The notes under the pieces were generated by a model, which did not search any database, was not told where the DNA came from, and saw only the letters and a list, made by a program, of their open reading frames with translations. A program made the position numbers and the translations under genes. This document shows positions 1 to 12,778 of a DNA stretch of 12,778 nucleotides, in pieces (position 1 is the first letter of the stretch; each line of letters begins with the position of its first letter). Source of the stretch: a virus (lineage: Duplodnaviria > Heunggongvirae > Uroviricota > Caudoviricetes); the IMG/VR virus record IMGVR_UViG_2711768056_000012, positions 1 to 12,778 of that record. One strand, written 5' to 3'.

Positions 1-192
1 TCAGGAGCATTTCTGATTAACGCCACCGTTAAGAATCCACCCTTCAACAGCTTCACGAAGGTATGATTTGGGGTGGGTTCTGACTGGCTTCGGAAATCCG
101 TGCCGTTTGGTATAGTTCCAGATTGTCTGACGTGATGAAACACCGAGCTTGTTCATCACTTCTTTCTCAGGAATCAGGCTGGTATCGGTCAT
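1..192 (-). CDS. Xis/AlpA-family small DNA-binding protein (putative excisionase), 63 aa
   Basis: Complete ORF with ATG at 192..190 and TGA at 3..1. GGAGA Shine-Dalgarno about 7 nt upstream. Translation has an AlpA/Xis-like pattern (GVSSRQTIWNYTKRHGFPKPV ... EGWI). Sits at the distal end of the leftward operon where lambdoid xis lies. Family assignment is from recall, not a search. Confidence 0.5.
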   Translation of the reverse strand: MTDTSLIPEKEVMNKLGVSSRQTIWNYTKRHGFPKPVRTHPKSYLREAVEGWILNGGVNQKCS

Positions 193-271
193 CTTAATTC
201 TCCAGGCAAAAATAAACCGCCATACAGCGGCTCTATCAGATATGAACAGGCCTCATCGAGTGTGAGGCGGG

Positions 272-616
272 TTAGTCCTTGCGTAGCTCGCTGATTCTTC
301 TGTAAGTCTCTGGTGCTTTGTTCCCGTACGTCTTCATTTCAGACTTCAACAGAGCAACGAGTGAATCCCATTCGTTGAGGATTCCTTTGAATGCCGGAAC
401 GCGCTTTGCAACCTTGTCGAATGAATCCCTGATTTCTGGGATCTGCTCAACAAGTGCAACGCATCGTCGGAAATCGGCTGCGTCATGTGGAGCGCCGAAG
501 TGATGACCATAGATATTCTTTTTCAGGCCACATGCGATTGAGGCAAGAGTTGCGCTACTGATGCCGACATCGCCAGTCGATTGCCATTTCAAAACCTTCA
601 TAGCCAAATCTGACAT
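272..616 (-). CDS. hypothetical phage protein, 114 aa (start taken at internal ATG 616)
   Basis: ORF-track frame 272..643. ATG at 616..614 is preceded by GGAGA (revcomp of 621..625) at good spacing. The longer 643 start would run into the upstream hairpin. No recognisable motif. Confidence 0.45.
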   Translation of the reverse strand: MSDLAMKVLKWQSTGDVGISSATLASIACGLKKNIYGHHFGAPHDAADFRRCVALVEQIPEIRDSFDKVAKRVPAFKGILNEWDSLVALLKSEMKTYGNKAPETYRRISELRKD

Positions 617-620
617 TTCT

Positions 621-652
621 TGTCTCCAATAAAAAACCGCCATCAGGCGGTT
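621..652 (-). terminator. putative intrinsic terminator (7-bp stem, 4-nt loop, T-tract) on leftward transcript
   Basis: Plus strand aaccgcc-atca-ggcggtt (635..652) preceded by an A-run at 627..634, so the minus-strand RNA has a hairpin followed by UUUUUUAUU. Sits between the 57-aa ORF and the 114-aa ORF. Confidence 0.4.
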
Positions 653-812
653 TGGTGTTCTTTCAGTTCTTCAATTTGAATATTGGTTACTTCTGCATGT
701 GCTATCTGCGCCCATATCATCCAGTGGTTATAGCAGTCATTGATGTCCTCTGCTTCGATAACTCTGTCGAATGGCTCTCCATTCCATTCACCTGTGACTC
801 GGAAGTGCATTT
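639..812 (-). CDS. small hypothetical protein, 57 aa (below ORF-track cutoff)
   Basis: Hand-translated: ATG 812..810 preceded by GGAGA at 6-nt spacing, giving MHFRVTGEWNGEPFDRVIEAEDINDCYNHWMIWAQIAHAEVTNIQIEELKEHQTA. Stop lies in the loop of the 635..652 hairpin. Confidence 0.3.
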
Positions 813-820
813 ATCATCTC

Positions 821-848
821 CATAAAACAAAACTCGCCGTAGCGAGTT
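821..848 (-). terminator. putative intrinsic terminator downstream of the AT-rich moron gene
   Basis: Plus strand aactcgc-cgta-gcgagtt (831..848) preceded by A-rich 821..830. On the minus strand this is a 7-bp stem hairpin followed by UUGUUUUAU. Confidence 0.45.
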
Positions 849-898
849 CAGATAAAAGAAATCCCCGCGAGTGCGAGGATAGTTACTTGTTCATATTA

Positions 899-1180
899 TT
901 AATCGTCAATGTATTTTGAGCATTGTGGGCAATCATCAATCCCACAATACGATTCATATGCATCCTTTATTGCGTCGCGGGCTTCAGTAAGAGTATTGAA
1001 TAAGTTGCAGCTATTATCTTTTTGATATAGGTAAGTTCCTAATTTATAAGCAGAAGAAGCATCATTTCCGCTGTCTAAAATTACATCGTTATGGATTCTG
1101 CACCTTGCAAGAACTCCTGATCCCATAAGGGTCTGCATAGCCCATTGCTCTTGATCTTCACACAAATCATGAATGCTCAT
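899..1180 (-). CDS. AT-rich moron: small Cys-containing hypothetical protein, 93 aa
   Basis: ORF-track frame 899..1198 begins at a GTG; the first ATG is 1180..1178 (MSIHDL...) with a GAGAGGTG SD-like sequence upstream. Local GC is visibly lower than the neighbours (a 60-nt hand count at 901..960 gave about 35% versus about 53% in a sample at 11041..11100). Flanked by an AT-rich upstream region (1199..1294) and a downstream hairpin terminator. C-terminus has C-x4-C-x2-C (YCGIDDCPQC). Confidence 0.5.
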   Translation of the reverse strand: MSIHDLCEDQEQWAMQTLMGSGVLARCRIHNDVILDSGNDASSAYKLGTYLYQKDNSCNLFNTLTEARDAIKDAYESYCGIDDCPQCSKYIDD

Positions 1181-1294
1181 TTCAACACCTCTCTTCACGT
1201 TTCACACACGTTAAGATTAACAGTGTTTTTACATGCTTTGGAAGATTTATTTTATAAAAACTCTTTTAATACAAATAGATATAATAGTTCACTA

Positions 1295-2122
1295 TTATAG
1301 CTCCTTTAATCGAGGCGGTTCTGGTAGTGGCATCCAGTGTGACGGCTCACATACCCCCTCAACACCATTCATGTAAAAGAATTGAAATAACCCTTTACCT
1401 TTGTGAAACCCTACCATCTGCTCTTTTGTGTCTGAGCAATAAACCAAAACATCTTCTTCGTTCGGCATTCGCTCACTACAGCTTATCCAACCATCCGGAG
1501 TTACCGGAGAGTTGCCATTCACAAGGTCAGCTCGAACATATAGCGTGTCATCATGGTGCTGATTGTGGCTGCACCACGTTAATTCGCTTAACTCGCCATC
1601 TTCTGGCCATACTCCAGCCGTTTGCAGCCAGATATGGGCTGGCGCATCTTTGCAAGGTGTATTAACTGGCAACTTGTAAGTTTGGCTTACAGGTTCGGCA
1701 CCATGAAGCATGGCGTCGCTCCGCTCTATGCCATCCAGCGCGATTCGCAGTGCATGAATTGTGGTAGAGCTATCGTTTGGGGCTATTCCATATCGCTCGA
1801 ATACAGCTAAATGGTTGCGCATAATCTCAGGCGTAAGCTCTTTGTAAGCATAAGCAAGAGGCTCTGATGCATTATCCGGCACAACCGACGCAGGCGCGGC
1901 AGCATAAACAGGAATAACGTCCGGTTGCTCTTTATTGCTTTCATCCGTTAAAGCCCAGAATAATTTTCCAGCCGGATGTTTGAAAATATAAGCAACTGGA
2001 TCTGCTTCCAGCGATGCCAGTGCAATTTCATAAGCCCGGCGTTCAATATTGTCTCGAACGTCCAGGCTGCTGATACGCTCTTTGATTTCTTTAATCAGTT
2101 CTTTGTCGGTGAAAGTGGTCAT
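1295..2122 (-). CDS. phage protein with C-terminal DUF551-like domain, 275 aa
   Basis: ORF-track frame 1295..2245. Start taken at ATG 2122..2120 (MTTFTDKELIKEI...), preceded by AAAGGAGAG and abutting the upstream gene stop (TGA-T-ATG). The C-terminal stretch DGWISCSERMPNEEDVLVY...GFHKGKGLFQFFYMNGVEGVCEPSHWMPLPEPP resembles the DUF551 domain common in enterobacterial prophage early-left genes (recalled). Confidence 0.55.
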   Translation of the reverse strand: MTTFTDKELIKEIKERISSLDVRDNIERRAYEIALASLEADPVAYIFKHPAGKLFWALTDESNKEQPDVIPVYAAAPASVVPDNASEPLAYAYKELTPEIMRNHLAVFERYGIAPNDSSTTIHALRIALDGIERSDAMLHGAEPVSQTYKLPVNTPCKDAPAHIWLQTAGVWPEDGELSELTWCSHNQHHDDTLYVRADLVNGNSPVTPDGWISCSERMPNEEDVLVYCSDTKEQMVGFHKGKGLFQFFYMNGVEGVCEPSHWMPLPEPPRLKEL

Positions 2123-2123
2123 A

Positions 2124-2732
2124 TCACTCTCCTTTAATGCGAATGCCAGCGGCGCGGATAGATTTCCATTGTTTCCACATTCGGTTGAAGTCTGTGCCTG
2201 ATAAGGTTGCGTTACGGTATCCAGTTTCAGTACGCAATCCTTCAAGCGTCGATTTGGAGATACAAATTGAATGCATTACCCATGATTCAAACAAATCACG
2301 CTCCCGGGCTTCGCAACTTTGCTTACTCATCTCTTCGATACGTTCAGCCATCGCAGCACACTCTTCAAAGTTGCTTAATGCTTTTCGCTCCCATTCGGCG
2401 CATTGTTTTCCAAGCTCTGCAATCAGCTTGTCTTTGCCTTCCAGCTCAACACGCAGCTTCCCTACCGTTAGCGCAATATCCTCGTTCTCTTGGTCGCGGC
2501 GTTTGATGTATTGCTGGTTCCTTTCCCGTTCATCCAGTAGTGCCAAAGCAACCTTTGGATTAAAGGCAGCAATAAATTCAGCGTTGTTTTTCAGAACGTG
2601 TTGCGCAATGGCCTGACTACTTAGTCGGACCTCATAACCACGTGCGCCACGGTGTGGTTTATATGAGTCCCAGTCTCCCCACGTTGCTTTCTCTGCCGCC
2701 TCACGCAGTGCCTGGTAATTAATTTTGGTCAT
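2124..2732 (-). CDS. hypothetical phage protein, 202 aa, coiled-coil-rich (possibly Ea22-like)
   Basis: ORF 2124..2732, ATG 2732..2730. Stop abuts the next gene start. The central region is charged and heptad-like (LALLDERERNQQYIKRRDQENEDIALTVGKLRVELEGKDKLIAELGKQ). Ea22-like assignment is tentative. Confidence 0.5.
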   Translation of the reverse strand: MTKINYQALREAAEKATWGDWDSYKPHRGARGYEVRLSSQAIAQHVLKNNAEFIAAFNPKVALALLDERERNQQYIKRRDQENEDIALTVGKLRVELEGKDKLIAELGKQCAEWERKALSNFEECAAMAERIEEMSKQSCEARERDLFESWVMHSICISKSTLEGLRTETGYRNATLSGTDFNRMWKQWKSIRAAGIRIKGE

Positions 2733-2733
2733 A

Positions 2734-3033
2734 TCACATCACCCTGAAGCCGTTGCATTTACGTAAGAAATCGCAGATATAGCCTTTCATTTTTTCATGC
2801 CAATCTCGATCATTCCCATTGCACCAACCATCAGGTGGAGTCCAGTTTTCTATCAGAGCAGCCATTTTCTTTGCTTTCGCCGGAGTAGCTGTTGCGGTAT
2901 CGCAGTAATGACGAGTGTTAACCAACGCATCCATACCATCGATATCAAGTACGCAAAACCATGTGTGATTCGGCATTTCAACAGATGGTATTTGTTGCCC
3001 ACGTCGACGTTTATCAATAAGACATACAGTCAT
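2734..3033 (-). CDS. hypothetical protein, 99 aa
   Basis: ORF 2734..3033. Its ATG (3033..3031) overlaps the TGA (3032..3030) of the upstream gene in an ATGA arrangement, suggesting translational coupling. No recognised motif. Confidence 0.5.
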   Translation of the reverse strand: MTVCLIDKRRRGQQIPSVEMPNHTWFCVLDIDGMDALVNTRHYCDTATATPAKAKKMAALIENWTPPDGWCNGNDRDWHEKMKGYICDFLRKCNGFRVM

Positions 3034-3656
3034 GGTTCCACCTTCTCTATTTGCTTAAGACCGTCTCTCACTGCATTAAGTACGCGTTCCAGATACTGGT
3101 ATTTCGGGTTTGGTACCGTTGGCCAGTCGGCATACCACGGATCATCACCAAAGAGATTCAGCAGTTTGTTACCGACGCCGAAACAACAGCAGCTTTCTTT
3201 TACGTCATCGGCGTTTTCCGCCTCGTCCCACATTTCGCGAGCCTGTACCGCGTCGATTTCTCTCTCTCTTCGTAACTTTATGATTTCTGACTTCACGAAA
3301 AGCAGATTTGCATCGTTGTCATCGTCGACCGTGCTTCGCAGTTGAGGTTCGAAATAGCCGATTAGATACTCGTTGCTGACCCGCTTAATGAACGTCTGCA
3401 CATCATCACCGCCCATAGCAAACCAAGCCGCAGTCCACGCTTTTCCGTAGCAGGTGATGGTGATTCTTCCCTTACCAGGTTCGTAGTTTTCAATCATCAC
3501 TCGAACCGGATCTAGTCGCTCTGCACCGGTTATAACGAATGACAACACATCAATCTTTTCAACCGTTACACTCACTGTTTGCCTCCTTTGCTCGCTGATT
3601 CCACTCTGCTCTAACCTCTGAATAAAAAATCGCGCAGTCATTTCCAGGAGCTGCAT
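3030..3656 (-). CDS. hypothetical protein (about 208 aa; start uncertain)
   Basis: ORF-track frame 3030..3767 overlaps the Lar-like gene for over 200 nt at its 5' end. Candidate ATGs at 3656 and 3641 have only weak SDs; an in-frame GTG at 3548 just after the Lar stop is also possible. Contains an acidic patch (STVDDDNDANLLF) and a CCC motif. Confidence 0.45.
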   Translation of the reverse strand: MQLLEMTARFFIQRLEQSGISEQRRQTVSVTVEKIDVLSFVITGAERLDPVRVMIENYEPGKGRITITCYGKAWTAAWFAMGGDDVQTFIKRVSNEYLIGYFEPQLRSTVDDDNDANLLFVKSEIIKLRREREIDAVQAREMWDEAENADDVKESCCCFGVGNKLLNLFGDDPWYADWPTVPNPKYQYLERVLNAVRDGLKQIEKVEP

Positions 3657-3795
3657 ATTTGCTACCAGATTGAGCGCGACACGTACCGCATCGAACGAAA
3701 TAGAATCGACCGCCAGAGCCATATTCAGGGTGATCTGCTTCGCTGGCAACGTGCGCTGCACCGCCACAGAATGGACATGGTAGTAGGTTGCTCAT
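3559..3795 (-). CDS. lar: Lar-family restriction-alleviation-like protein, 78 aa
   Basis: Start taken at ATG 3795..3793 ([16 protein letters not shown]...), which overlaps the TGA of the upstream 186-aa gene (ATGA). The CPFCGG ... RCGTCRAQ zinc-ribbon-like pattern matches what I recall for the Lar family (Rac prophage Lar). Confidence 0.5.
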   Translation of the reverse strand: MSNLLPCPFCGGAAHVASEADHPEYGSGGRFYFVRCGTCRAQSGSKYAAPGNDCAIFYSEVRAEWNQRAKEANSECNG

Positions 3796-4352
3796 GAATG
3801 CACTCCCTTGTGAAGCTGTTCCGCACAATGCAGCAGGGCGTCAGTCGCCTCTTTCACCGTAACGCAGTCGCCATCGTCCAGCCCGGACACCGACGCGTGC
3901 TTAACGAACGCCGCGCAAAGGTCATCAAACGCCTTAGCCCGGACTTCAGTCAGGAAAGCATCGGTGGCTGGGGTGTCTGATTGTATATACTTTGCGCGAT
4001 AGTCATTCCACCCTCTTGCATACATGGGATTAACTTGCACTCCATCTTTTACGCAATATGCCTGCCCTCCACGGTTGATAACCTTGATTTCGTCCATAGC
4101 GCCAGACTTCAGACCCGCATTCTCCGCTGCCAGTGCCGAAAACTTCTCGTGTGCCAACTTAACAGCCGAATCAGCCTGCTTAATTGACTCAATCGCTTTC
4201 TGTTGGTCTTCGGCCAGCGCCAAAATCTTGGCCTCCGCTTCAGCAAATTTACGCACCAGATATTCAGCGTTTGTTTCGTTAACCTTTAAATCTCGTGGGA
4301 TGCATTTACCTTTCAGAAAACCATCCATCTCAATTAGTGACATTTGTTTCAT
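3792..4352 (-). CDS. hypothetical phage protein, 186 aa, N-terminal coiled-coil
   Basis: ORF 3792..4352. ATG 4352..4350 overlaps the TGA of the upstream small ORF (ATGA). N-terminal half is alanine/glutamate-rich and helical-looking ([45 protein letters not shown]). Confidence 0.55.
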
Positions 4353-4513
4353 TTCTTCCCACTCCGCAACATCGCATTAAGATATTTGTTGTCATTAACA
4401 GAACCGAAACTATTTCTCTTAAGCAATTCCTCTCTCGATGGCATTGGCTTTACGCGTTGGCGAATAATCATTTCTGCCGGAAGAATGCCGGGATTGTATG
4501 CAAGTCCTCTCAT
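4349..4513 (-). CDS. small hypothetical protein, 54 aa (start uncertain)
   Basis: Frame of the 4349..4663 ORF. The internal ATG at 4513..4511 (MRGLAYNPG...) is preceded by GAGGAA and avoids overlap with the 97-aa gene. Its stop overlaps the downstream ATG. Confidence 0.3.
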
Positions 4514-4523
4514 GGTAAATTCC

Positions 4524-4817
4524 TCAGTCATTACTGATAGCGCCATAGCGTGAGCGGTAATTACGCAGTCGCGGGTCAATTTCAGGGAAGTGGGTATATG
4601 TGGCTTTGCGGAATGGTCGGATTGATGTCTGGTAAATTCGCTCGCGTTCTTCTTTCTCTGCAAGCCATATACAATGGCGAAATTCCTTTTCCTCTTTCGT
4701 TTCCTGCGGTAGCGACATTATCAGGTCGTAGTTTTTTCTGAATTTATCCAGCACCTCCGATACGGAATTGCCGGAACAGCGGCGCGGGTCATCCGCACCA
4801 TACTGAGGCGCTGGCAT
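4524..4817 (-). CDS. hypothetical protein, 97 aa
   Basis: ORF 4524..4817 with ATG 4817..4815 preceded by a strong AGGAGAAAAT SD, immediately downstream of ssb. Charged and Arg-rich, no recognised motif. Confidence 0.5.
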
Positions 4818-4830
4818 GATTTTCTCCTGA

Positions 4831-5337
4831 TTAAATTGCGTGAATAGCGTGACGAGGGAAGGGGAGAGTTACTGGTGCAAAGGGTATATCGTCGTCAAAA
4901 TCCATCGGAGGTTCGTTGTGTTGTGCTGGTGATGATTGCTGCTGTGGCTTCTGTGATTGCCTGCTGGCTGCTTGTTGTTTGCTGTCGCCAATGCCGCCAA
5001 GCATCTGCATCACGCCATTAATTCCGACATGAACCTCGGTTGTGTAACGGTCTTGCCCTGACTGGTCTTTCCACTTTCTGGTTCTCAGCATTCCCTCGAA
5101 ATAAATCTGATCACCTTTTTTCACATACTGCCCCACGACCTCAGCCAGTTTCCCGGATACAGCAACACGATGCCATTCAGTCAATTCCTTTTGCTCGCCA
5201 GTATTTTTATCTCGCCATTGTTCTGACGTGGCTATTGTCAGGTTAGCGAACGCTGTTCCTGATGGTGAGTATCGAACTTCCGGGTCTTGTCCTACCCGAC
5301 CAAGGATAATCACCTTATTTACGCCTCTGCTTGCCAT
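4831..5337 (-). CDS. ssb: single-stranded DNA-binding protein (SSB), 168 aa
   Basis: Translation has a typical SSB OB-fold N-terminus ([44 protein letters not shown]...), a Gln/Pro/Gly-rich linker and the acidic C-terminal tail ending in DFDDDIPF, characteristic of bacterial and phage SSBs. Confidence 0.9.
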
Positions 5338-6045
5338 TTATGCCGCCTGTTTTAGTTCGTTAACTCTGATGTTCATTACCTGAACGCATTTAGCCTGCGC
5401 TTCCTCGTTGCCAGCCATTAATTGCCAGTCACGCTGATAACGCTCGATGAGTTTTTTCTTATCAGTTTCTTTCGATGCATAATCGCTGAAGTCTTTCAGG
5501 ATTTGTTCGCAGTCAACCGATGGAGATTTCTGGTTGGTATTTTCTGGTGATGGTTTGTTATCTGATGCTGGGATTGCCCAGCCGGGCAGCGTTGGAGGGA
5601 GCCAGTAAAACCCTGTTCCATCCTTCAGTTTTGCCCTGTGCCACCCCTGCTTTTTATCGAGAGATGTTTGTGCGAAACCTTCCTCAAGGTTATACAGATA
5701 CCGACCGATTCCCCATTGAACGGCAGCGCGCTTCATTGCACCGGAACGACCACCTTTGACGGCTTCTACTTGCGTGTTTTCAGCAGCATCCCATTTGGTT
5801 ACCCATTCGGAATCAATCTTGATTGATATGCCGCATTCAACTCCGCCGTTGTTGGGAATATCGCGGTATTCATTGCGCCATCCTGCTTTGCCGCAAACAT
5901 CGTCCAGGCGTTTCATGATTGCCCTGTTCGTGACATAAGCCAGCACCATAGCCCACACTTTTCCATCGCGTGTTTTACCGCTTTGCTGTATTCGCCATTC
6001 GATATCTTCAGGGCTGAATGGCTCATCGAATTTATTCAAATCCAT
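5338..6045 (-). CDS. Rad52-like single-strand annealing protein (Sak-type recombinase), 235 aa
   Basis: ORF 5338..6045 with ATG 6045..6043 and a GAGGTG SD. Stop TAA directly abuts the ssb ATG. The motif VKGGRSGAMKRAAVQWGIGRYLY resembles the conserved core of phage Rad52/Sak-family proteins (recalled). Occupies the position of lambda bet. Confidence 0.6.
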   Translation of the reverse strand: MDLNKFDEPFSPEDIEWRIQQSGKTRDGKVWAMVLAYVTNRAIMKRLDDVCGKAGWRNEYRDIPNNGGVECGISIKIDSEWVTKWDAAENTQVEAVKGGRSGAMKRAAVQWGIGRYLYNLEEGFAQTSLDKKQGWHRAKLKDGTGFYWLPPTLPGWAIPASDNKPSPENTNQKSPSVDCEQILKDFSDYASKETDKKKLIERYQRDWQLMAGNEEAQAKCVQVMNIRVNELKQAA

Positions 6046-6144
6046 AATTCACCTCAGAATGGACATGGCCCAAGGAAATAACGCTGGTTTAATACTTCGA
6101 CTCTGGACAAATTAAGGCATACCCGCATTCCTTCGCGGTCACCA

Positions 6145-6303
6145 TTATGGCGATACCAGAGAGCTTTCTGCGTGTACATGCGTCTCTGTAACTTGCTCTC
6201 CTTCACTGTGGTTGCAAGTAACATGAATATCTCCTTCGTTACCGATTAATTCTTTCATCTGACGAATGAATTCTTCGTCTGACCAGTTATCTGTAAAACT
6301 CAT
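6145..6303 (-). CDS. possible small ORF, 52 aa (speculative)
   Basis: Hand-translated from ATG 6303..6301, which overlaps the TGA of the Kil-like ORF: MSFTDNWSDEEFIRQMKELIGNEGDIHVTCNHSEGEQVTETHVHAESSLVSP. SD is too close to be convincing; expression would depend on coupling. Confidence 0.2.
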   Translation of the reverse strand: MSFTDNWSDEEFIRQMKELIGNEGDIHVTCNHSEGEQVTETHVHAESSLVSP

Positions 6304-6452
6304 TTCCTGCGATACCACGGAAGGTTGATAGCTGATTTCATCGCTTTATTTGCTTCAAGCCACATTTTTGAATCACCAATAAATCTGGCTATTACTGCTT
6401 TGTTCTGTGCAGCACGAAGCATCTGGTGATTAATGGCTATTTCATTGCGCAT
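6300..6452 (-). CDS. Kil-like small protein candidate, 50 aa (below ORF-track cutoff)
   Basis: Hand-translated from ATG 6452..6450, preceded by GGAGGCGTT at 5-nt spacing: MRNEIAINHQMLRAAQNKAVIARFIGDSKMWLEANKAMKSAINLPWYRRK. Lies immediately distal to cIII, where lambda has kil, and is of similar size. Assignment is by position and size only. Confidence 0.4.
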   Translation of the reverse strand: MRNEIAINHQMLRAAQNKAVIARFIGDSKMWLEANKAMKSAINLPWYRRK

Positions 6453-6571
6453 AACGCCTCCAGTTGTTTCTTTGCTGCTCTGATTAATTGTTTAACTCGG
6501 CGTGATAATTCAGATTCGTGCGGGTAGAAAGCGGACATGACGCCGCTACCCGCGAGCTGAAAGTGCATCAT
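6437..6571 (-). CDS. cIII: CIII-like protein (protects CII from FtsH), 44 aa
   Basis: Internal ATG 6571..6569 of the 6437..6676 ORF is preceded by TAAGGAG at 6-nt spacing. The product MMHFQLAGSGVMSAFYPHESELSRRVKQLIRAAKKQLEALCAMK resembles lambda CIII as I recall it (AIAG...SESLLERITRKL...). The longer 79-aa form would span a terminator hairpin. Confidence 0.65.
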   Translation of the reverse strand: MMHFQLAGSGVMSAFYPHESELSRRVKQLIRAAKKQLEALCAMK

Positions 6572-6635
6572 GGGTAACTCCTTATATTTGATTGCATAAC
6601 GAAAACGCCTCGAGTGAAGCGTTATTGGTATGCAT

Positions 6636-6661
6636 ATAAAAAAGCCCTCACACTGGAGGGC
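6636..6661 (-). terminator. putative intrinsic terminator upstream of cIII (tL1-like)
   Basis: Plus strand A-run 6637..6643, then gccctc-acactg-gagggc (6644..6661). On the minus-strand RNA this is a 6-bp GC-rich hairpin followed by UUUUUUAU. Confidence 0.5.
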
Positions 6662-6723
6662 AAAGAAGATTTCCAATAATCAGAACAAGTCGGCTCCTGT
6701 TTAGTTACGAGCGACATTGCTCC

Positions 6724-6751
6724 GTGTATTCACTCGTTGGAATGAATACAC
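6724..6751. repeat. 9-bp inverted repeat (GTGTATTCA ... TGAATACAC) in the leftward transcript
   Basis: gtgtattca at 6724..6732 and its reverse complement tgaatacac at 6743..6751, separated by 10 nt. Intergenic, between the 80-aa ORF and the tL1-like terminator. Confidence 0.4.
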
Positions 6752-6789
6752 AGTGCAGTGTTTATTCTGTTGCTTATTCCAAAGCAAAT

Positions 6790-7032
6790 TTAACCATCAA
6801 CAAACTCTTCTGGTAATTTATCAACTATTTGATGACTTATTATCAGCCATTTGCCATCCTTCGTTTCGTATGCATATTTCTGGTCTTTTATCATCAGGTG
6901 TTCGGCTACTGCCTTAACTGCTTGCTCGGTGACATCTTCTTTCTTTCCTACCCACATTCCTTTTTCAGTGTTTAATGTTCCTTGAAAAATACGACCGCTT
7001 AATGGGCTTGCGCCCATAGTTTTTACTCTCAT
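6790..7032 (-). CDS. hypothetical protein, 80 aa
   Basis: ORF 6790..7032. Weak SD; start could alternatively be the ATG five codons in. Lys/Glu-rich. In the lambda ral/ea10 neighbourhood by position only. Confidence 0.45.
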   Translation of the reverse strand: MRVKTMGASPLSGRIFQGTLNTEKGMWVGKKEDVTEQAVKAVAEHLMIKDQKYAYETKDGKWLIISHQIVDKLPEEFVDG

Positions 7033-7096
7033 GTATCAGCTCTCAAATAATTGGTTTGCTGCCAAAACAATGAACCATCCGGAAATTCCAGATAGT

Positions 7097-7321
7097 TCAT
7101 AATTCACTCTTCAATACTTCCAGCTTACTAATCGCCGAAAGATATCCGCGCTGATAGGGCATCATCATTCCTTCGAGCTTGCCACTTCTTAACTCCTTCC
7201 TGAGCAATTGTATTGCTTGATCAATAACCTCTGACTTAGCGTCCTTTATGGCTTGCTTGCGGGGCTTTGCTTTCTGCTTTGGCAGATTTCTCAAGCATGA
7301 TGGAATGTATGTCTGATTCAT
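7097..7321 (-). CDS. hypothetical basic protein, 74 aa
   Basis: ORF-track frame 7097..7324 begins at GTG; the ATG at 7321..7319 is preceded by GAGGT at 6-nt spacing and lies directly after the N stop (TAA 7327..7325). Confidence 0.45.
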   Translation of the reverse strand: MNQTYIPSCLRNLPKQKAKPRKQAIKDAKSEVIDQAIQLLRKELRSGKLEGMMMPYQRGYLSAISKLEVLKSEL

Positions 7322-7324
7322 CAC

Positions 7325-7597
7325 TTACCTCGCTGTCAGTTGTTTTGATTTCCGGTAGCCTGCCGCGTAAATGGCTACGTTTGGCAGGCAAATACTTCCA
7401 CTGCATTCATCTTCCTTCTTGCAGCGAAGGCTTCCGAGTGATGCTGCTTTGTCTGCTCTGACGCAACCAGAGAGCTTTAGCGCAATTTTTCGCGCCAGTC
7501 GCTGTTCTTGCATTGCCTGCTCACGTTGAGCCTGTCTGCGTGCTCTGCGGCGATTTCTGGCGTTATCGTCAGCCAGATATGTAATGACTACTGTCAT
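7325..7597 (-). CDS. N: N-type transcription antiterminator, 90 aa
   Basis: ATG 7597..7595 with a GGAGG SD. N-terminal arginine-rich motif (DNARNRRRARRQAQREQ). C-terminus AAGYRKSKQLTAR resembles the P22-type N (gene 24) C-terminus as recalled. First gene downstream of pL and nutL. Confidence 0.85.
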   Translation of the reverse strand: MTVVITYLADDNARNRRRARRQAQREQAMQEQRLARKIALKLSGCVRADKAASLGSLRCKKEDECSGSICLPNVAIYAAGYRKSKQLTAR

Positions 7598-7703
7598 GTT
7601 GACCTCCGATGATTGACTTTGGCGGTGACGCGCCGGGTGCTTATCTTCCGGTTGCCGTCGTGCAGCTGCACTTCACGTCACCCCAAAGCCAACTACTCTT
7701 TGG

Positions 7704-7746
7704 TTCCCGCATTTCGGCGGGACAATCCCATCAATGTTAAAGAGCC
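7704..7746 (-). promoter_or_regulatory. nutL (boxA at 7737..7746, boxB hairpin at 7704..7722)
   Basis: Read on the minus strand, boxA is GGCTCTTTAA, followed after about 14 nt by boxB, which is 19/20 identical to the nutR boxB stretch. Lies between pL and N. Confidence 0.7.
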
Positions 7747-7791
7747 TGCCAATATGTTCCGTTTGGCTACCAGCGTCCTGCTGATGGCTAA

Positions 7792-7820
7792 AGAATACTG
7801 TAGGTATTTTATTGTGTAAA
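7792..7820 (-). promoter_or_regulatory. pL promoter candidate (-35 TTTACA, 17-bp spacer, -10 TATTCT)
   Basis: On the minus strand: -35 is the revcomp of 7815..7820 and -10 the revcomp of 7792..7797, with an exact 17-nt spacer. Both hexamers overlap operator sites. Confidence 0.5.
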
Positions 7821-7879
7821 TACCCAAGGTATTTATTTTTGATGAAATAATGATAAGCAAATGAATACAAAGGATATTT
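7793..7879. promoter_or_regulatory. oL operator cluster: three 17-bp sites with AATAC-N5-GTATT dyad symmetry
   Basis: GAATACTGTAGGTATTT (7793..7809), AAATACCCAAGGTATTT (7818..7834, a perfect palindrome) and the weaker GAATACAAAGGATATTT (7863..7879). Same half-site consensus as the oR sites. Confidence 0.6.
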
Positions 7880-7965
7880 ATTTTTTTCGGTGTCTGCTTG
7901 TTCAGTGCTTTTTATGCGGGATATGTGAAGTGGATCCCGATAGCTATTGCTGCCGGGATTATAGG

Positions 7966-8334
7966 TTAGTCAGCGAAGGTTAAGACGAGAATTACCTTAA
8001 TGATATCTGCTACAACAGACACGGCCATAGATAAACCAAAGACAATCCAAGCCATAGAGATGTCTTCACTACCATCGTATAGAGTTCCGTAATCACTGGT
8101 GTAAGGCGTAAATGTCGCGCCTTGATACAACAGGTATAAGCTTGAACCATAGAGGATAAATGCAGATATCCCTTGTATTGCTATGATCACTAGAATCATG
8201 AAACGAGCTGATCTATGCGCCCAAGCCTGGCTTATTTTTTCTGATAGAGATTTCGCAATAAAAGCATGCGCTAAGCCGTAAATTGTCGAGATTGCCAACA
8301 TCCCAAAAAAGCTTGCTATAGCGGTTCCAACCAT
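7966..8334 (-). CDS. small integral membrane protein in the rexAB-equivalent slot (candidate exclusion/abortive-infection protein), 122 aa
   Basis: ORF-track frame 7966..8355 begins at TTG; the ATG at 8334..8332 is preceded by AAGGGG and lies 17 nt downstream of the cI stop, consistent with co-transcription with cI. Three long hydrophobic segments separated by a basic loop (KSLSEKISQAWAHRSAR) and an acidic loop (TPYTSDYGTLYDGSEDIS). No similarity to lambda RexB that I can recognise. Confidence 0.6.
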   Translation of the reverse strand: MVGTAIASFFGMLAISTIYGLAHAFIAKSLSEKISQAWAHRSARFMILVIIAIQGISAFILYGSSLYLLYQGATFTPYTSDYGTLYDGSEDISMAWIVFGLSMAVSVVADIIKVILVLTFAD

Positions 8335-8351
8335 AATCGCCCCTTGCGTGA

Positions 8352-9068
8352 TCAAACCAGCCTTAGTTTTGTCTCAATTGCAACGCCTATAATCTTGCAG
8401 TTTCCATTGATTGGCACGAGAGGCCATGCAGGATTAAGTCCCTTGAGGTATTTATTTCCGCCGTCGATTATCAGCTTCTTGAATGTTGCTTCGTTAGAGT
8501 CAGAAAGTTTTGCTATGACCAAGCTGCCGTTGATCGCCTCCCTTCCGGTATCGAAAAGAACGAATGTTCCCTCTGGAATGCTTAACCCAACCGGTGCCGT
8601 CATTGAATCACCTTCCACTTTAAGCCAGAACGCATTACCTTGAATATGCGCGTCAGACTCAAGCCAAACATCTATGTCTTTAATGGTGTATGGTTCGCAT
8701 GCTTCACACCACGAGCCAGCCTGGATACTGCTTAACACCGGATACCTCTTTCCTGCTCTGTATTCCCCTGCATACCTTACGTTGGCATCGCTCTTAAGGC
8801 TTTCTGCCTGTTCTGCAACCTTGGCAGCAATTGACTGGCTAAAATCAGCAATTGAGACTTGCAACAGTCGTGCAAAACCAGATGCAACCTCAACGTTTAG
8901 CGCGTTTCTGCCATTAAGATAATGCCCTACCGCTCCTTGGGTGATACCCAGTTCATCAGCGATTGAGTATTGGGTTATCCCCAATTCTTTCTTTTTTGAC
9001 TCATACAAAGCCTTAAGCCGCTTAGCGTCTTCGAGCTGTTCTGTCGTCAGTGATTTTTTATTTTCCAT
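8352..9068 (-). CDS. cI: CI repressor (HTH DNA-binding domain plus LexA-like S24 autopeptidase domain), 238 aa
   Basis: N-terminus closely resembles lambda CI as recalled (KKSLTTEQLEDAKRLKALYESKKKELGITQYSIADELGITQGAVGHYLNGRNALN). C-terminal domain carries the Ala-Gly cleavage site (SIQAGSW), the catalytic Ser (EGDSMTAP) and Lys (TFKKLI). Divergent from cro across an operator region. Confidence 0.92.
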   Translation of the reverse strand: MENKKSLTTEQLEDAKRLKALYESKKKELGITQYSIADELGITQGAVGHYLNGRNALNVEVASGFARLLQVSIADFSQSIAAKVAEQAESLKSDANVRYAGEYRAGKRYPVLSSIQAGSWCEACEPYTIKDIDVWLESDAHIQGNAFWLKVEGDSMTAPVGLSIPEGTFVLFDTGREAINGSLVIAKLSDSNEATFKKLIIDGGNKYLKGLNPAWPLVPINGNCKIIGVAIETKLRLV

Positions 9069-9100
9069 AGCTTAATTCTAATAGCTAAGGTACTTAAACT
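9066..9100 (-). promoter_or_regulatory. pRM candidate (-10 TAGAAT; cI mRNA possibly leaderless)
   Basis: On the minus strand TAGAAT (revcomp of 9075..9080) ends 6 nt before the cI ATG, which would make the transcript start at or near the AUG as in lambda pRM. The -35 is poor (TTTAGT), consistent with an activator-dependent promoter. Confidence 0.35.
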
Positions 9101-9144
9101 AAAAATACCCTGAGTATTGATTGCTTTGAATACCTGTAGTATTC
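9079..9144. promoter_or_regulatory. oR operator cluster: OR3-like (9079..9095), OR2-like (9103..9119), OR1-like (9128..9144)
   Basis: AAATACCCTGAGTATTG and GAATACCTGTAGTATTC are clear AATAC-N5-GTATT dyads, with centres 25 bp apart. A degenerate third site AATAGCTAAGGTACT lies next to the cI start. Lambda-like tripartite layout. Confidence 0.65.
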
Positions 9145-9145
9145 T
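9117..9145 (+). promoter_or_regulatory. pR promoter candidate (-35 TTGATT, 17-bp spacer, -10 TATTCT)
   Basis: TTGATT at 9117..9122 and TATTCT at 9140..9145 with exactly 17 nt between; overlaps OR1 and OR2. Same -10 hexamer as the pL candidate. Confidence 0.55.
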
Positions 9146-9174
9146 TTGTTCATGGTTAATAACGGAGAGTGCAT

Positions 9175-9369
9175 ATGATTCGAATGACACTTGCCGATTA
9201 CGCCAAAATCCATGGACAGGCTAAAGCAGCCAGTGACTTTGGTGTAATCCAGTGCGCTATCAGCAAGGCCATTCTGGCAGGCCGTAACATTATGGTTACG
9301 GTAAAGCCTGATGGCAGTGTGATTGGAGAGGAGGTTCGACCTTTCCCAAGCAACAAGAAAAACAAATAG
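9175..9369 (+). CDS. cro: Cro repressor, 64 aa
   Basis: ATG at 9175 preceded by GGAGAG (9163..9168); the ORF-track start at 9169 is a GTG two codons upstream. Translation [62 protein letters not shown] matches lambda Cro closely as recalled. Confidence 0.88.
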
Positions 9370-9375
9370 TAACAC

Positions 9376-9420
9376 CGCTCTTTAACAGTCATGGTCCTCA
9401 TTCCCGCCGAAATGCGGGAA
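9376..9420 (+). promoter_or_regulatory. nutR (boxA CGCTCTTTAA at 9376..9385, boxB hairpin at 9401..9420)
   Basis: boxA matches the lambdoid consensus CGCTCTT(T)A. It is followed 15 nt later by a hairpin (stem uucccgc/gcgggaa, loop cgaaau). Located just after the cro stop, as in lambda. Confidence 0.7.
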
Positions 9421-9477
9421 TACAACGCGCATAAGTTGATGCGCATAACTTCTTATTTGTTAAGGAAATACTTACAT

Positions 9478-9756
9478 ATGGAACTTACAAGTACTCGCAA
9501 GAAAGCGAATGCAATTACAAGCAACATCCTGAATCGAATTGCTGTACGTGGTCAGCGAAAGGTTGCCGACGCGTTAGGGATTAATGAATCGCAAATTTCG
9601 CGATGGAAAGACAGCTTCATCCCCAAAATGGGAATGCTTCTGGCTGTTCTTGAATGGGGTGTTGAAGACGAGGAGTTGGCGGAACTGGCTAAGAAAGTAG
9701 CCAGAATGCTGACAAAAGAAAAAGCCCCGAAGAACGGCGAATTCTTCGAGGCCTGA
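9478..9756 (+). CDS. cII: CII transcriptional activator, 92 aa
   Basis: Start taken at ATG 9478 (MELTSTRKK...), which aligns the HTH ([19 protein letters not shown]) and the [10 protein letters not shown] motif with lambda CII as recalled. The ORF-track start at 9391 would lie inside nutR. Confidence 0.85.
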
Positions 9757-9790
9757 TGTAGAAAGACTGGATCAATCCACAGGAGTAATT

Positions 9791-9937
9791 ATGACAAAAC
9801 AACTCAGTCCTTACCAGGACAAAATTCACAAACACATACTACGTGATCGCTTCCTGTCCAGCTTCAAGCAGCCTGGTCGATTCCGGGCTGAGTTGGAAAA
9901 AGTGAAGCTGATGCAGAAGGAGAAAGGTCATGAGTAA
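9791..9937 (+). CDS. small hypothetical protein between cII and O, 48 aa
   Basis: Hand-translated: ATG 9791 preceded by AGGAG (9781..9785) at 5-nt spacing, giving [48 protein letters not shown]. Stop overlaps the O start by 8 nt. Confidence 0.35.
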
Positions 9938-10790
9938 TATTGCAACCGTAACACATTTAAGGCCTTCACAACGGCCTGTGGAGCGTCGTGTGGCAGAAGT
10001 TGAAGATGGTTATACCCGTCTTGCAAATGCCCTGTATGAAGAGCTTATCGGCGCAGATTTAACGAAAAATCAGAGCAAGGTTGCCCACGCCATATGCCGT
10101 AAAACATACGGCTACGGTAAAAAGATGGATCGCATCTCTGATAGTCAGTTAGCTCAAATTACCAGGCTGCCAAGACAGAAGGTAAACAAGGCCAAGAATG
10201 AGCTTATCGCGATGAAGGTTATCCTTCGCGAAGGCCAGCAAATCGGTCCTAACAAGAACATCGAAGAATGGCAAATCGAAGGGTGTCACTACTCTGGTGA
10301 TAATGTCACTGCATTGGTGACAAAAAGTGTCACCAAAACGGTGACAGCGCTGTCACCAAAACAGGGACACACAAAAGAAACTATTACAAAAGAAAAAAGA
10401 AATAATAAAAACACTATGTCCGAAAGTGTTCGGACGGAGTGTGAAAAATCACCTGACCGTCACGAAGAAACCGACAAGGCATTCGAGGAAATATTCTGGT
10501 GTGCAGGCATGCGGAAAGCCGGGAAGAAAAACGCAGCTTCGGCATTCAGAACACAGTTCAGGGAATGGCGTAAAACTACCAGGGGTACGGCAAGCGAGTT
10601 TGCCACGATGCTGGCAGAAGACATCGCATGCAGGAATGGTAAGCAGTTCGGATTCGACAGGTTGTTACCATCGAGCTACCTGAACGGTCAGCGCTGGAAC
10701 GACGAAAAGCCAGAAACCATTCAACCACAATCCAAACCATCATCCGCAATCACCGTATCGAAAACTGGCTACGTGTTTTTCGACAGGTGA
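9930..10790 (+). CDS. O: O-like replication initiator, 286 aa
   Basis: N-terminal domain resembles lambda O as recalled ([56 protein letters not shown]...GPNKNIEEW). AGGAGA SD. The coding sequence contains iterons and an AT-rich tract in its linker region. Confidence 0.85.
10281..10362. repeat. replication origin iterons (four repeats built on GTCAC ... GGTGA dyads) inside the O gene
   Basis: GTCAC occurs at 10285, 10305, 10329 and 10352 (spacing 20 to 24 bp), each paired with GGTGA(C/T) at 10296, 10316 and 10340. An A-rich tract follows at about 10363..10417, then an inverted repeat gtccgaa-agtg-ttcggac at 10418..10435. This mirrors lambda ori layout. Confidence 0.6.
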
Positions 10791-10793
10791 ACC

Positions 10794-10901
10794 ATGAAAT
10801 CAAAAATCAAATCGCTACTGGTCGCTGGTTATAACCACGGCTGGTTAAGTATTTCGTTTGTCGATTTCTGGTTTAAAAATCTCAATCTGAGGGAATCATG
10901 A
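10794..10901 (+). CDS. possible small ORF, 35 aa (speculative)
   Basis: ATG 10794 lies 4 nt after the O stop; TGA at 10899..10901 overlaps the ATG of the primase-helicase. Product MKSKIKSLLVAGYNHGWLSISFVDFWFKNLNLRES. No convincing SD. Confidence 0.2.
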   Translation: MKSKIKSLLVAGYNHGWLSISFVDFWFKNLNLRES

Positions 10902-12778
10902 CACCAAGTGAACTTAGCGACCTGCTTTGGGCGCAGGTTGACAGGGTGGCTCCGCACCTGTTGCCAAACGGCAAGAAAGAGGGGCATGAGTGGGTTGCCG
11001 GTAACGTCAACGGTGACAAGGGAAACAGCCTTAAGGTCAACCTTAGCGGCAAGAAAAAATGGGCTGATTTCGCTGAGGGAGACGGCGGTGACATGCTTGA
11101 TTTGTGGATGGCATGTCGTGGAATTAACCTGCATCAGGCTATGCAGGAAGCGAAAGCATTTCTCGGTATCAAGGATGACGATCACCATTTCGATGCCAAA
11201 CGTGAGAAAAAATTCTCCAGACCTGATCGCAAAAAAATCGCCCGCTACGTTACCAGAACAGAATCCCATCTTGAGTACCTGCAATCGCGTGGCATATCGC
11301 CAGAAGTCGTAAAGCGCTACGAGGTTGTCAGCGGCAAGGTGTGGAATGGAGAGCGGGAACTGGATGCTCTGGTGATTCCGTACAAACGCGATGGTGAGTT
11401 GTTGCAGGTCAAGCGAATCAGCACTGAGCGCCCGGACGGGAAGAAAGTCATTATGGCAGAAGGTGATTGCGAACCTTGTCTGTTCGGATGGCAGGCTCTG
11501 GACGCTGGCGTGAGGGCGGTTGTACTTTGCGAAGGCGAAATTGATTGTATGAGCTATGCGCAATACGGCATCTCGGCGTTATCCGTGCCGTTTGGTGGCG
11601 GGAAAGGCGCTAAGCAGCAGTGGATTGAGTTTGAGTATCACAATCTCGACAGGTTTGAGGAAATATTCATCTCGATGGACGTTGATGATGTTGGTCGTGA
11701 AGCCGCAAGGGAAATCGCAAGCCGACTCGGTGAACATCGTTGCCGTCTTGTTACTCTGCCGTACAAAGACATCAACGAATGCCTGATGAACGGTGTTACC
11801 GAGGATGAAATCTGGCAGTACATCGGCACGGCATCCTACTTCGACCCTGAAGAACTCTACAGCGCGCGAGAGTTTTACCAGGACACTATCAACGCTTTCT
11901 ACGGCAATCAGCAGTATCTGTTTAATCCACCGTGGGAATCTCTGGCAGATAAATTCCAGTTCCGTGAGGCCGAGTTGACGCTGGTCAATGGTGTGAACGG
12001 TCACGGAAAAACGGAGGTTGTCGGACATATGGCTCTTGAGGCAATGCGTCAGGGTGTGAAGACGTGCATCGCGTCACTTGAGCTGAAGCCTGGTATTCTC
12101 CTTAAGCGCCTTACCCGTCAGGCGACGTGCTGCAAGATGCCGCCAGTGCTGGAAATTGACTCTGCATTTAAATTTTATGACGAAAGACTTTGGGTGTTTG
12201 GTCTGACCGGAACGGCGAAAGCCGACAGGCTGATCGAAATATTCGACTACGCTCGCCGCCGATACGGGATCCAGTTATTCATCATCGACAGCCTGATGAA
12301 ATGTGGCATAGGAGACGATGACTATAACGGGCAGAAGGCGTTTGTTGACTCGATTTGCGACTTCAAAAACAAAACAAACTCCCACGTCATTCTCGTTACT
12401 CACTCGCGAAAAGGAGACAGCGAAGAAAAACCAACCGGGAAAATGGACGTAAAAGGCTCTGGAGCGATAACAGACCTGACAGACAACCTTTTCATCATCT
12501 GGCGTAACAAGGCTCGCGAGAGAGCATTACAGAGAGTTCAGAGTGGTGAAAAGATGTCAGAGAAGGACGAACAGCTACTGGCATCTCCGGCATCTGTTTT
12601 GATGCTTGAAAAACAACGTAACGGCGAAGGTTGGGAAGGTGGTGTCCCGTTGTTCCTTGACGAGCAATCGCACCAGTTCCTGCAACTTGAATCAGGATCG
12701 CCATATAGCTACATCGCCAATATGCCGAAATCGGAATATGACGAGGCGTGGCGACAGGAAAACGTGACGGAGTATTAA
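10898..12778 (+). CDS. fused DNA primase (Toprim) / DnaB-like (SF4) replicative helicase, 626 aa
   Basis: GAGGGAA SD before ATG 10898; complete ORF ending TAA at 12776..12778. Toprim signatures are present (VVLCEGEIDCMSYAQ and FISMDVDDVGREAA with DxD). C-terminal RecA-like domain has Walker A (LVNGVNGHGKTE) and Walker B-like (IQLFIIDSLMK) motifs. The N-terminal region looks like a primase zinc-binding domain lacking the cysteines (WADFAEGDGGDMLDLWM). Confidence 0.8.
   Translation: MTPSELSDLLWAQVDRVAPHLLPNGKKEGHEWVAGNVNGDKGNSLKVNLSGKKKWADFAEGDGGDMLDLWMACRGINLHQAMQEAKAFLGIKDDDHHFDAKREKKFSRPDRKKIARYVTRTESHLEYLQSRGISPEVVKRYEVVSGKVWNGERELDALVIPYKRDGELLQVKRISTERPDGKKVIMAEGDCEPCLFGWQALDAGVRAVVLCEGEIDCMSYAQYGISALSVPFGGGKGAKQQWIEFEYHNLDRFEEIFISMDVDDVGREAAREIASRLGEHRCRLVTLPYKDINECLMNGVTEDEIWQYIGTASYFDPEELYSAREFYQDTINAFYGNQQYLFNPPWESLADKFQFREAELTLVNGVNGHGKTEVVGHMALEAMRQGVKTCIASLELKPGILLKRLTRQATCCKMPPVLEIDSAFKFYDERLWVFGLTGTAKADRLIEIFDYARRRYGIQLFIIDSLMKCGIGDDDYNGQKAFVDSICDFKNKTNSHVILVTHSRKGDSEEKPTGKMDVKGSGAITDLTDNLFIIWRNKARERALQRVQSGEKMSEKDEQLLASPASVLMLEKQRNGEGWEGGVPLFLDEQSHQFLQLESGSPYSYIANMPKSEYDEAWRQENVTEY

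Follow-up and report, generated by a model that had tools for sequence, protein, structure and literature searches.

Small inner-membrane proteins that block the entry of phage DNA are known from phage T4 (Imm) and phage HK97 (gp15). SieA of phage P22, an inner-membrane protein with three transmembrane (TM) segments that is expressed by the prophage, is sufficient alone to block DNA delivery (PMC10883804). The interval between the repressor gene cI and the antiterminator gene N has been described as a mosaic hotspot with a strong lysogenic promoter, and it carries rexAB and bstA (PMC8585504). In the Salmonella prophage BTP1, BstA is encoded directly downstream of the repressor, presumably from the same promoter, and is highly expressed in lysogeny (PMC8585504). 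Here we consider the same slot in a stretch of 12,778 nucleotides (nt) from a Caudoviricetes virus (IMG/VR record IMGVR_UViG_2711768056_000012, positions 1 to 12,778), hereafter the window, which is the early region of a lambdoid prophage. Between cI and the left operator and promoter (oL/pL) the window carries a single gene of 122 codons, at 7966-8334 on the minus strand, which belongs to the hkaS family.

This hkaS is a real gene under purifying selection and not a chance open reading frame (ORF). By family, its product is a new member among the accessory membrane proteins of the prophage repressor operon; the gene itself was already catalogued. As to what HkaS does, we tentatively favour a role as a lysogen-expressed inner-membrane factor for superinfection exclusion (Sie).

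The interval between cI and pL

The gene is flanked by cI and by OL3-OL1/pL, which is the position of rexA/rexB in lambda. An earlier reading of the window, made from the sequence only, had put a 122-amino-acid (aa) ORF alone in this slot, with an ATG 17 nt past the cI stop codon and a Shine-Dalgarno (SD) sequence of its own. That description was accurate: the spacer is there and contains AAGGGG, only cI lies upstream, and oL/pL follow downstream. The features of the interval and its surroundings are these:

7966..8334, minus strand: hkaS-family coding sequence from the list of ORFs, ATG start, TAA stop, 122 aa
8340..8345, minus strand: SD sequence AAGGGG, within the cI-hkaS spacer and 5 nt before the hkaS ATG
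8335-8351, minus strand: cI-hkaS spacer of 17 nt, TCACGCAAGGGGCGATT
8352..9068, minus strand: cI repressor (Pfam HTH_3 and Peptidase_S24), first cistron of the presumed pRM operon
7934..7959, minus strand: RNA hairpin, folding free energy -14.1 kcal/mol, z -2.9, 7 nt past the hkaS stop, with no U-run
7854..7885, minus strand: AT-rich terminator, counterpart of the tIMM annotated in HK620, with coordinates carried over by an alignment of 99% identity; it overlaps OL3
7793-7809, 7818-7834 and 7863-7879, minus strand: OL1, OL2 and OL3, from the operator pattern and the HK620 annotation
7820-7792, minus strand: pL, with -35 TTTACA, a 17-nt gap and -10 TATTCT, from a promoter scan
7325-7597, minus strand: N antiterminator (PF25694, E 7e-16; phrog_271), first gene of the pL operon, on the far side of the slot
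~9079-9095: OR3, from the HK620 annotation
9103-9119 and 9128-9144, plus strand: OR2 and OR1, from the operator pattern, in the pR/pRM region

The coding sequence of cI ends with the TGA at 8354-8352, and the cI of the window is 99.6-100% identical to those of HK620, mEpX2 and HK140. Over the whole stretch that separates cI from N, the window is 99% identical to HK620, for which the annotation gives the order cI, hkaS, tIMM, OL3-OL1, pL, nutL, N. The operator pattern, AAATAYCNNNNGTATTY, occurs 11 times, where chance would give 1.07. A site resembling an operator within hkaS (AGATATCCCTTGTATTG, 8164-8180, codons 52-57, two mismatches to the OL/OR consensus) was set aside as chance-level; none of the Salmonella, Hafnia and metagenome homologues has it.

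The anatomy of this interval gives good support to the view that cI and hkaS would be transcribed together from pRM. Scanning revealed no promoter-like or terminator-like site between the two genes and no promoter-like site inside cI. The same order, namely cI, 17-20 nt, SD, ATG, gene, hairpin and OL3-OL1/pL, is found at every homologue locus, with identity down to 52%, and the Salmonella, Hafnia and metagenome homologues have an SD of the AAGGA/AAGGAC type with unchanged spacing. Some gene callers choose an in-frame TTG at 8355 as the start (129 aa); this was rejected, and the ATG at 8334 taken as the conserved start, since in homologues stop codons in the same frame precede or break up the segment that the longer form would add. 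With this arrangement, every lysogen would probably produce HkaS.

A canonical intrinsic terminator after hkaS was considered and rejected: a consensus scan flagged none there, the tIMM counterpart likewise going unflagged, and what the region offers is the hairpin, without its U-run, and the AT-rich tIMM annotated in HK620. Hairpins lie 7-22 nt past the stop codon in four lineages, with z-scores of -1.8 to -4.7, and none has a U-run; at the homologue loci they span 5381-5421 (L002), 5383-5412 (L006) and 1832-1859 (L008). Their stabilities are -14.1 kcal/mol in the window, -16.1 in Hafnia, -18.5 in Salmonella and -18.5 in the metagenome lineage. Since the four comprise three unrelated sequences, what is conserved is the position of the hairpin and not its sequence. 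The E. coli and Hafnia hairpins differ by a change from G-U to A-U and by a loop of AAUA in the former and GAGA in the latter. The hairpin is likely to be the 3' end, or a stabiliser, of the cI-hkaS transcript, and may alternatively be a processing site.

Family, predicted topology and selection

The 2001 genome paper of HK620 already annotated the gene as hkaS, and HK630 uses the same name. The HK620 gene, which carries no functional annotation, is 97.8% identical at the nucleotide level to the ORF at 7966-8334. The gene was thus already on record, in the HK620 entry and in PHROG 6534, although neither catalogue entry assigns a function. Across 16 phage records the 369 bases are 97.8-98.6% identical to the resident gene; these records include HK620, HK630, HK140, mEpX2, HF4s, HZ41, vB_EcoP-611R6, phi296 and phi367, and also two Stx2c-converting phages. 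The exact protein occurs on at least 1000 contigs, labelled everywhere as hypothetical, uncharacterised or HkaS. Among complete E. coli genomes hkaS is present in 146 of 5426 (2.7%), always on the chromosome, and a plasmid scan returned no copies. No paper on hkaS function was found in the literature.

One phage copy departs from the rest. In HF4s (MT833387.1, 28097-28464) the gene is 368 nt long, aligns in two pieces and has been annotated as a pair of ORFs, which indicates a frameshift or a sequencing error. If the frameshift were real, hkaS would be dispensable for plaque formation.

Homologues are 83% identical in Hafnia, 61% in Salmonella and 52-55% in metagenomes, and all are 122 aa long. 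A word-indexed search gave 12 clusters, an exhaustive hidden Markov model search of 1.84 billion cluster representatives gave one cluster and a 44-aa fragment, and a scan of one genome per species (185,579 species) gave no confirmed relative. The match to phrog_6534, a family of "unknown function", is full-length (residues 1-122 on profile positions 1-122, E 2.9e-79); at E<=1 the PHROG scan produced only this family and one insignificant match, and no PHROG annotated for exclusion. Nothing significant emerged from Pfam, NCBIfam or PADLOC, and the defence models of PADLOC-DB v2.0 gave no family at E<=1. The best hit among them, Cation_ATPase_C (E 0.0011; 19 bits, the cut-off being 27), was dismissed as a hydrophobic-helix artefact. 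There was no match to a holin family in Pfam or PHROG, nor to a colicin-immunity, holin or transporter family of Pfam at E<=1, and the DefensePredictor supplementary tables examined list none of the HkaS RefSeq accessions. By these searches the HkaS family is an orphan confined to Enterobacterales prophages.

Structural comparison led to the same place. A sequence search of the PDB gave no match, and fold searches with a predicted model returned generic helical bundles only and no structural analogue. The sequence-only reading had suggested profile and structure-based searches of this kind, and they brought up no housekeeping or structural protein. It had also seen no resemblance to RexB or SieB, which agrees with hhalign probabilities of 0.7% and 1.8%; kinship to SieA (0.3%) and to the Hex protein of phage 434 (0.1%) was rejected together with kinship to those two.

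Three hydrophobic stretches are evident in a Kyte-Doolittle plot (residues ~1-27, 45-70 and 93-121). The AlphaFold2 model, built from an input of seven sequences, has a predicted local distance difference test score (pLDDT) of 92.3 and a predicted template modelling score (pTM) of 0.79, with helices at 2-29, 41-73 and 89-121, a short helix at 31-38 and a small beta-hairpin at ~78-86. Hydropathy and model thus agree with the three TM helices predicted at first reading. The loop at residues 28-44 is basic (K28, K33, R41, R44), and the charged residues of the loop at 71-92 are all acidic (D81, D87, E90, D91). Under the positive-inside rule this charge pattern places the N-terminus in the periplasm, the first loop in the cytoplasm, the second loop in the periplasm and the C-terminus in the cytoplasm. 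We infer that HkaS is a three-helix inner-membrane protein with an N-out/C-in topology, with the following predicted parts:

Residues ~2-29: TM1
Residues 31-38: cytoplasmic amphipathic helix
Residues 41-73: TM2
Residues ~78-86: periplasmic beta-hairpin
Residues 89-121: TM3

Conservation is uneven across these parts. Invariant positions make up 53% of the cytoplasmic loop (KISQAWAHRxARF), 60% of the cytoplasmic half of TM3 (D110..K113.ILVLTFAD) and 18%, the lowest value, of the periplasmic loop, figures that come from five distinct lineages and are a hint only. The invariant residues include W38, H40, R44, Q54, D110 and K113; D110 and K113 form a buried pair, and both they and Q54 lie in the helices.

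The gene travels with its repressor. cI and hkaS occur one to one, across the 146 E. coli genomes as well as the 16 phage records. Among 80 viral contigs, cI, hkaS and oL/pL are the same as in the window in 79-80, the nutL-N segment in 41 and the part left of N in none. Beside the cassette, an unchanged HkaS is accompanied by replication modules of lambda-P, DnaB or primase-helicase type. The strict linkage is accounted for by the trapping of hkaS in the oL-to-oR immunity cassette, which has to move as a unit. Elsewhere the slot has other contents, as a survey across related prophages, also suggested in the sequence-only reading, made plain: the hkaS family occupies every homologue locus examined, and other cargo appears in other lineages. 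In Erwinia phage Eho49 (cI 65% identical) the slot holds a tetratricopeptide repeat (TPR) protein, in 434, HK446 and Huey (cI 51-52% identical) it holds the Hex family, and in Serratia OS31 (cI 71% identical) and mEp213 (cI 51%) it is empty. These varied occupants agree with the published picture of a mosaic hotspot between cI and N, and the literature on rexAB and bstA bears out the view that lysogen-expressed defence genes gather there (PMC8585504).

The case for selection rests on comparison with cI. Relative to the Hafnia copy, the rate of synonymous substitution (dS) is 0.78 for hkaS and 0.76 for cI, and these equal values imply a common history. The ratio of nonsynonymous to synonymous rates (dN/dS) in the same comparison is 0.12 for hkaS and 0.03 for cI. 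In more distant lineages synonymous sites are saturated, and dN is 0.33-0.44 for hkaS versus 0.07-0.09 for cI; the HkaS protein sequence evolves about 4-5 times faster than that of cI. Within the 80 IMG/VR viral contigs hkaS is intact in every one, free of stops and frameshifts, with 19 protein alleles of HkaS versus 6 of cI. Polymorphic codons divide into synonymous and replacement classes as 16:16 in hkaS versus 30:5 in cI (Fisher p = 0.003), and the replacement polymorphisms of hkaS are conservative (I/V, S/T, A/T, M/V). The GC content is 41.5% for hkaS versus 45.7% for cI. At five loci from E. coli genomes (L018-L022), an identical cI entry, WP_000428318.1, is accompanied by five different HkaS entries.

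Candidate functions of HkaS

The ranking of functional readings rests on context. In the exclusion model that we favour, hkaS follows cI as second cistron of its operon. RNA polymerase that starts at pRM in a lysogen would read cI, cross the 17-nt spacer and continue into hkaS, which would be translated from its own ribosome-binding site, and the transcript would stop at the hairpin/tIMM just before OL3. HkaS would thereby be produced constitutively while the prophage is repressed. The protein would insert in the cytoplasmic membrane, N-terminus outside and C-terminus inside. When superinfecting heteroimmune phages deliver their genomes, it would disturb the step at that membrane, a logic like that of P22 SieA or T4 Imm without the homology.

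Exclusion is favoured because HkaS is one small protein, predicted to be polytopic in the membrane, because no operon is more reliably expressed in a lysogen than the one that encodes it, because the characterised occupants of the slot guard against other phages, and because the three-helix SieA can by itself block DNA delivery (PMC10883804). The operon contains no sensor partner, which fits Sie better than a two-part abortive infection (Abi) system of the Rex type. The faster evolution of HkaS and its greater share of replacement polymorphism are compatible with changing phage targets.

Several observations weigh on the other side, and they keep our preference for exclusion a tentative one. 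PADLOC and the exclusion-annotated PHROGs give no match, and reports of a phenotype were not found. Comparisons by hhalign with SieA, SieB, RexB and Hex all fall below 2%, and the fold searches yield nothing beyond generic helical bundles. The conserved face, cytoplasmic in the predicted topology, hints at least as much at a cytoplasmic partner as at a phage target in the periplasm. Conservative replacements such as I/V, S/T and A/T are what relaxed constraint would be expected to leave, and not an arms race. Finally, the linkage to cI is no evidence of a functional tie to cI.

HkaS could instead be a stand-alone Abi effector. It would lie idle in the membrane until perturbed by a superinfecting phage and would then depolarise or permeabilise the membrane, so that the infected cell stops and yields no progeny, a RexB-like effect without RexA. 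The slot is shared with rexAB and has also held the Abi gene bstA, RexB-type effectors are small polytopic membrane proteins (PMC12894663), and the buried invariant D110/K113 and Q54, together with the conserved cytoplasmic face, could take a cytoplasmic trigger. We nevertheless regard this as rather unlikely: no sensor gene lies in the operon or is conserved nearby, the flanks being mosaic; HkaS has three helices and not four, an hhalign probability of 0.7% against RexB and no match in PADLOC; and four of the five described RexAB-type systems require both proteins (PMC12894663). About equally doubtful is a role at the lysis-lysogeny switch or in early replication, in which HkaS would bind cI or O/P-type proteins at the inner face of the membrane and so tune repression, inducibility or the start of replication; like roles have been proposed for lambda RexB and 434 Hex. 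The operon-like arrangement with cI, the strict co-inheritance with one cI lineage and a conserved surface that is predicted to be cytoplasmic would all suit such a modulator. A preprint reports two-hybrid interactions of RexB with CI and with O and effects of Rex on induction (bioRxiv 10.1101/2021.04.19.439022), and the slot gene in the phage 434 record OL657227.1 is labelled 'repressor protection protein'. However, trapping between oL and oR accounts for the co-inheritance, HkaS is constant next to replication modules of differing types, neither RexB nor Hex shows similarity to it, and related cI lineages have an empty slot.

HkaS may alternatively have nothing to do with phages. Immunity proteins against pore-forming colicins are three- or four-helix inner-membrane proteins of a size similar to HkaS, and a lysogenic-conversion gene, or moron, could benefit the host through toxin immunity (colicin- or bacteriocin-like), tolerance of envelope stress or altered transport. 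The slot in relatives does hold cargo that does not look like defence, namely the TPR protein of Eho49 and the 134-aa protein, with a predicted N-terminal signal peptide, of the 434/HK446 group, and the GC content of hkaS, 41.5% against 45.7% for cI, is moron-like. (One record labels the 134-aa protein PagP-like.) But the colicin-immunity, holin and transporter families of Pfam remain unmatched at E<=1, the plasmid scan gave no copy, the homologue loci have no toxin gene close by, and restriction to one phage immunity cassette would be unusual for a generally useful host trait; we consider a moron unlikely, though the least so of the alternatives. At the far end, hkaS could be a functionless passenger, kept only because it is lodged between oL and cI and is hard to lose by recombination. 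The block is inherited in one piece, constraint is weaker than on cI, and the HF4s copy, one base shorter at 368 nt, is consistent with a frameshift. Such a passenger would hardly be expected to show a dN/dS of 0.12 over a dS of 0.78, to keep its frame, 122-aa length, start and SD down to 52% identity despite saturated synonymous sites, or to be free of stops and frameshifts in 80 of 80 contigs; moreover, deletion would be easy, and related cassettes have empty slots. We judge this explanation very improbable.

A more speculative idea, and an improbable one, is that HkaS is a self-contained membrane device of 122 residues from a new family. It might sense the DNA-delivery machinery of a foreign phage as it reaches the inner membrane, and block or abort the infection without a separate sensor, or it might use its invariant cytoplasmic face (KISQAWAHRxARF and D110/K113-ILVLTFAD) to anchor cI or early replication proteins at the membrane and so couple immunity to the state of the envelope. 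Either version, if true, would be a mechanism without precedent in sequence or fold.

The existence of HkaS would not surprise a specialist; the gene is nonetheless common, orphan and cleanly delimited. The slot between cI and pL is among the few places where a prophage gene is almost certainly expressed in every lysogen, and the occupants known from it, rexAB and bstA, serve in defence. In a common immunity cassette of E. coli, found also in Stx2c-converting and model phages, HkaS has the slot to itself, and 25 years on it has no assigned function, no homologue outside its own family and no fold match. The gene is small, stands alone and belongs to phages that are amenable to genetics. If HkaS is an exclusion protein, escape mutants would point to its target step in genome entry at the membrane; should it leave phages unaffected, it would caution against equating "gene next to cI" with "defence".

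The rest of the window and the described systems

Other parts of the window conform to this lambdoid setting. To the right of cI, on the plus strand, lie Cro (PF09048) and CII (PF05269). The cro gene at 9169-9369 (plus) is listed from a GTG at 9169, and the HK620 annotation corresponds to an ATG at 9175 and 64 aa. The cII ORF at 9391-9756 (plus) is listed at 121 aa from the ATG at 9391, but its Pfam CII domain starts only at residue 30 and the cII of HK620 has 92 aa; translation probably begins at the ATG near 9478, and the part upstream of it contains nutR/tR1 by the HK620 annotation. Farther right, a 244-aa ORF with a TTG start (10829-11563, minus) is antisense to a 626-aa replication gene of primase/helicase type (10898-12778) and is probably spurious; at the Salmonella locus L004, an ORF of the same length and position matches Toprim_2 and AAA_25.

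On the left, the segment at 6437-7324 (minus) has no sieB-like gene next to N, where HK620 has hkaP, and contains small ORFs of 75 aa (phrog_5305), 80 aa and 79 aa. None of the 80 related viral contigs resembled the window in this segment, which is thus highly mosaic. The pL operon cargo at 1-6045 (minus) is ordinary lambdoid or P22-like early-left content. It includes a Rad52-family recombinase (5338-6045), a P22-type anti-RecBCD protein Abc2 (4524-4817), Ead/Ea22 (2124-2732), a DUF7739 protein, a DUF551 protein and an Ea8.5-like protein, together with an ORF at 4831-5337 (minus) that, judged from its translation, has the hallmarks of a single-stranded DNA-binding protein and a C-terminal DDDIPF tail. 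No Rfam family reached its gathering score on either strand of the whole window.

Set beside described proteins, HkaS combines familiar features in its own way. Its likeness to class I holins is confined to the predicted topology (three TM segments, N-out/C-in); unlike them, it ends in ...LVLTFAD without a basic tail, and its gene lies in the immunity region and not in a lysis cassette. The small blockers T4 Imm and HK97 gp15 are encoded at different genomic locations, and the PHROG scan at E<=1, which was not a direct comparison, showed no relation. The Hex family of 434, found also in HK446, Sf6 and Huey, resembles HkaS in being the product of a single gene directly after cI and in its similar size (134 aa), but it has an apparent cleavable signal peptide and no segment at the TM hydropathy threshold, and its hhalign probability is 0.1%.

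The resemblance to lambda RexB lies in position and general form. Each is encoded in the slot between cI and oL, and each is a small polytopic inner-membrane protein, by prediction in the case of HkaS; RexB is transcribed with cI from pRM to tIMM. RexB, however, has 144 aa, four predicted TM segments and cytoplasmic termini, needs RexA and has an internal promoter, pLIT, whereas HkaS has three helices in a predicted N-out/C-in arrangement (hhalign 0.7%). No rexA-like sensor gene stands beside hkaS, and no other ORF occupies the slot in any lineage examined. BstA is likewise encoded immediately after a prophage repressor gene, but it is an Abi protein that localises to phage DNA replication sites, comes with the self-immunity DNA element aba and is not described as a membrane protein. 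P22 SieA differs in its length of 162-164 aa, in its location beside the ejection-protein/immI region, in having its own promoter and in sequence (hhalign 0.3%), yet it is, like HkaS, a single small protein with three predicted TM helices.

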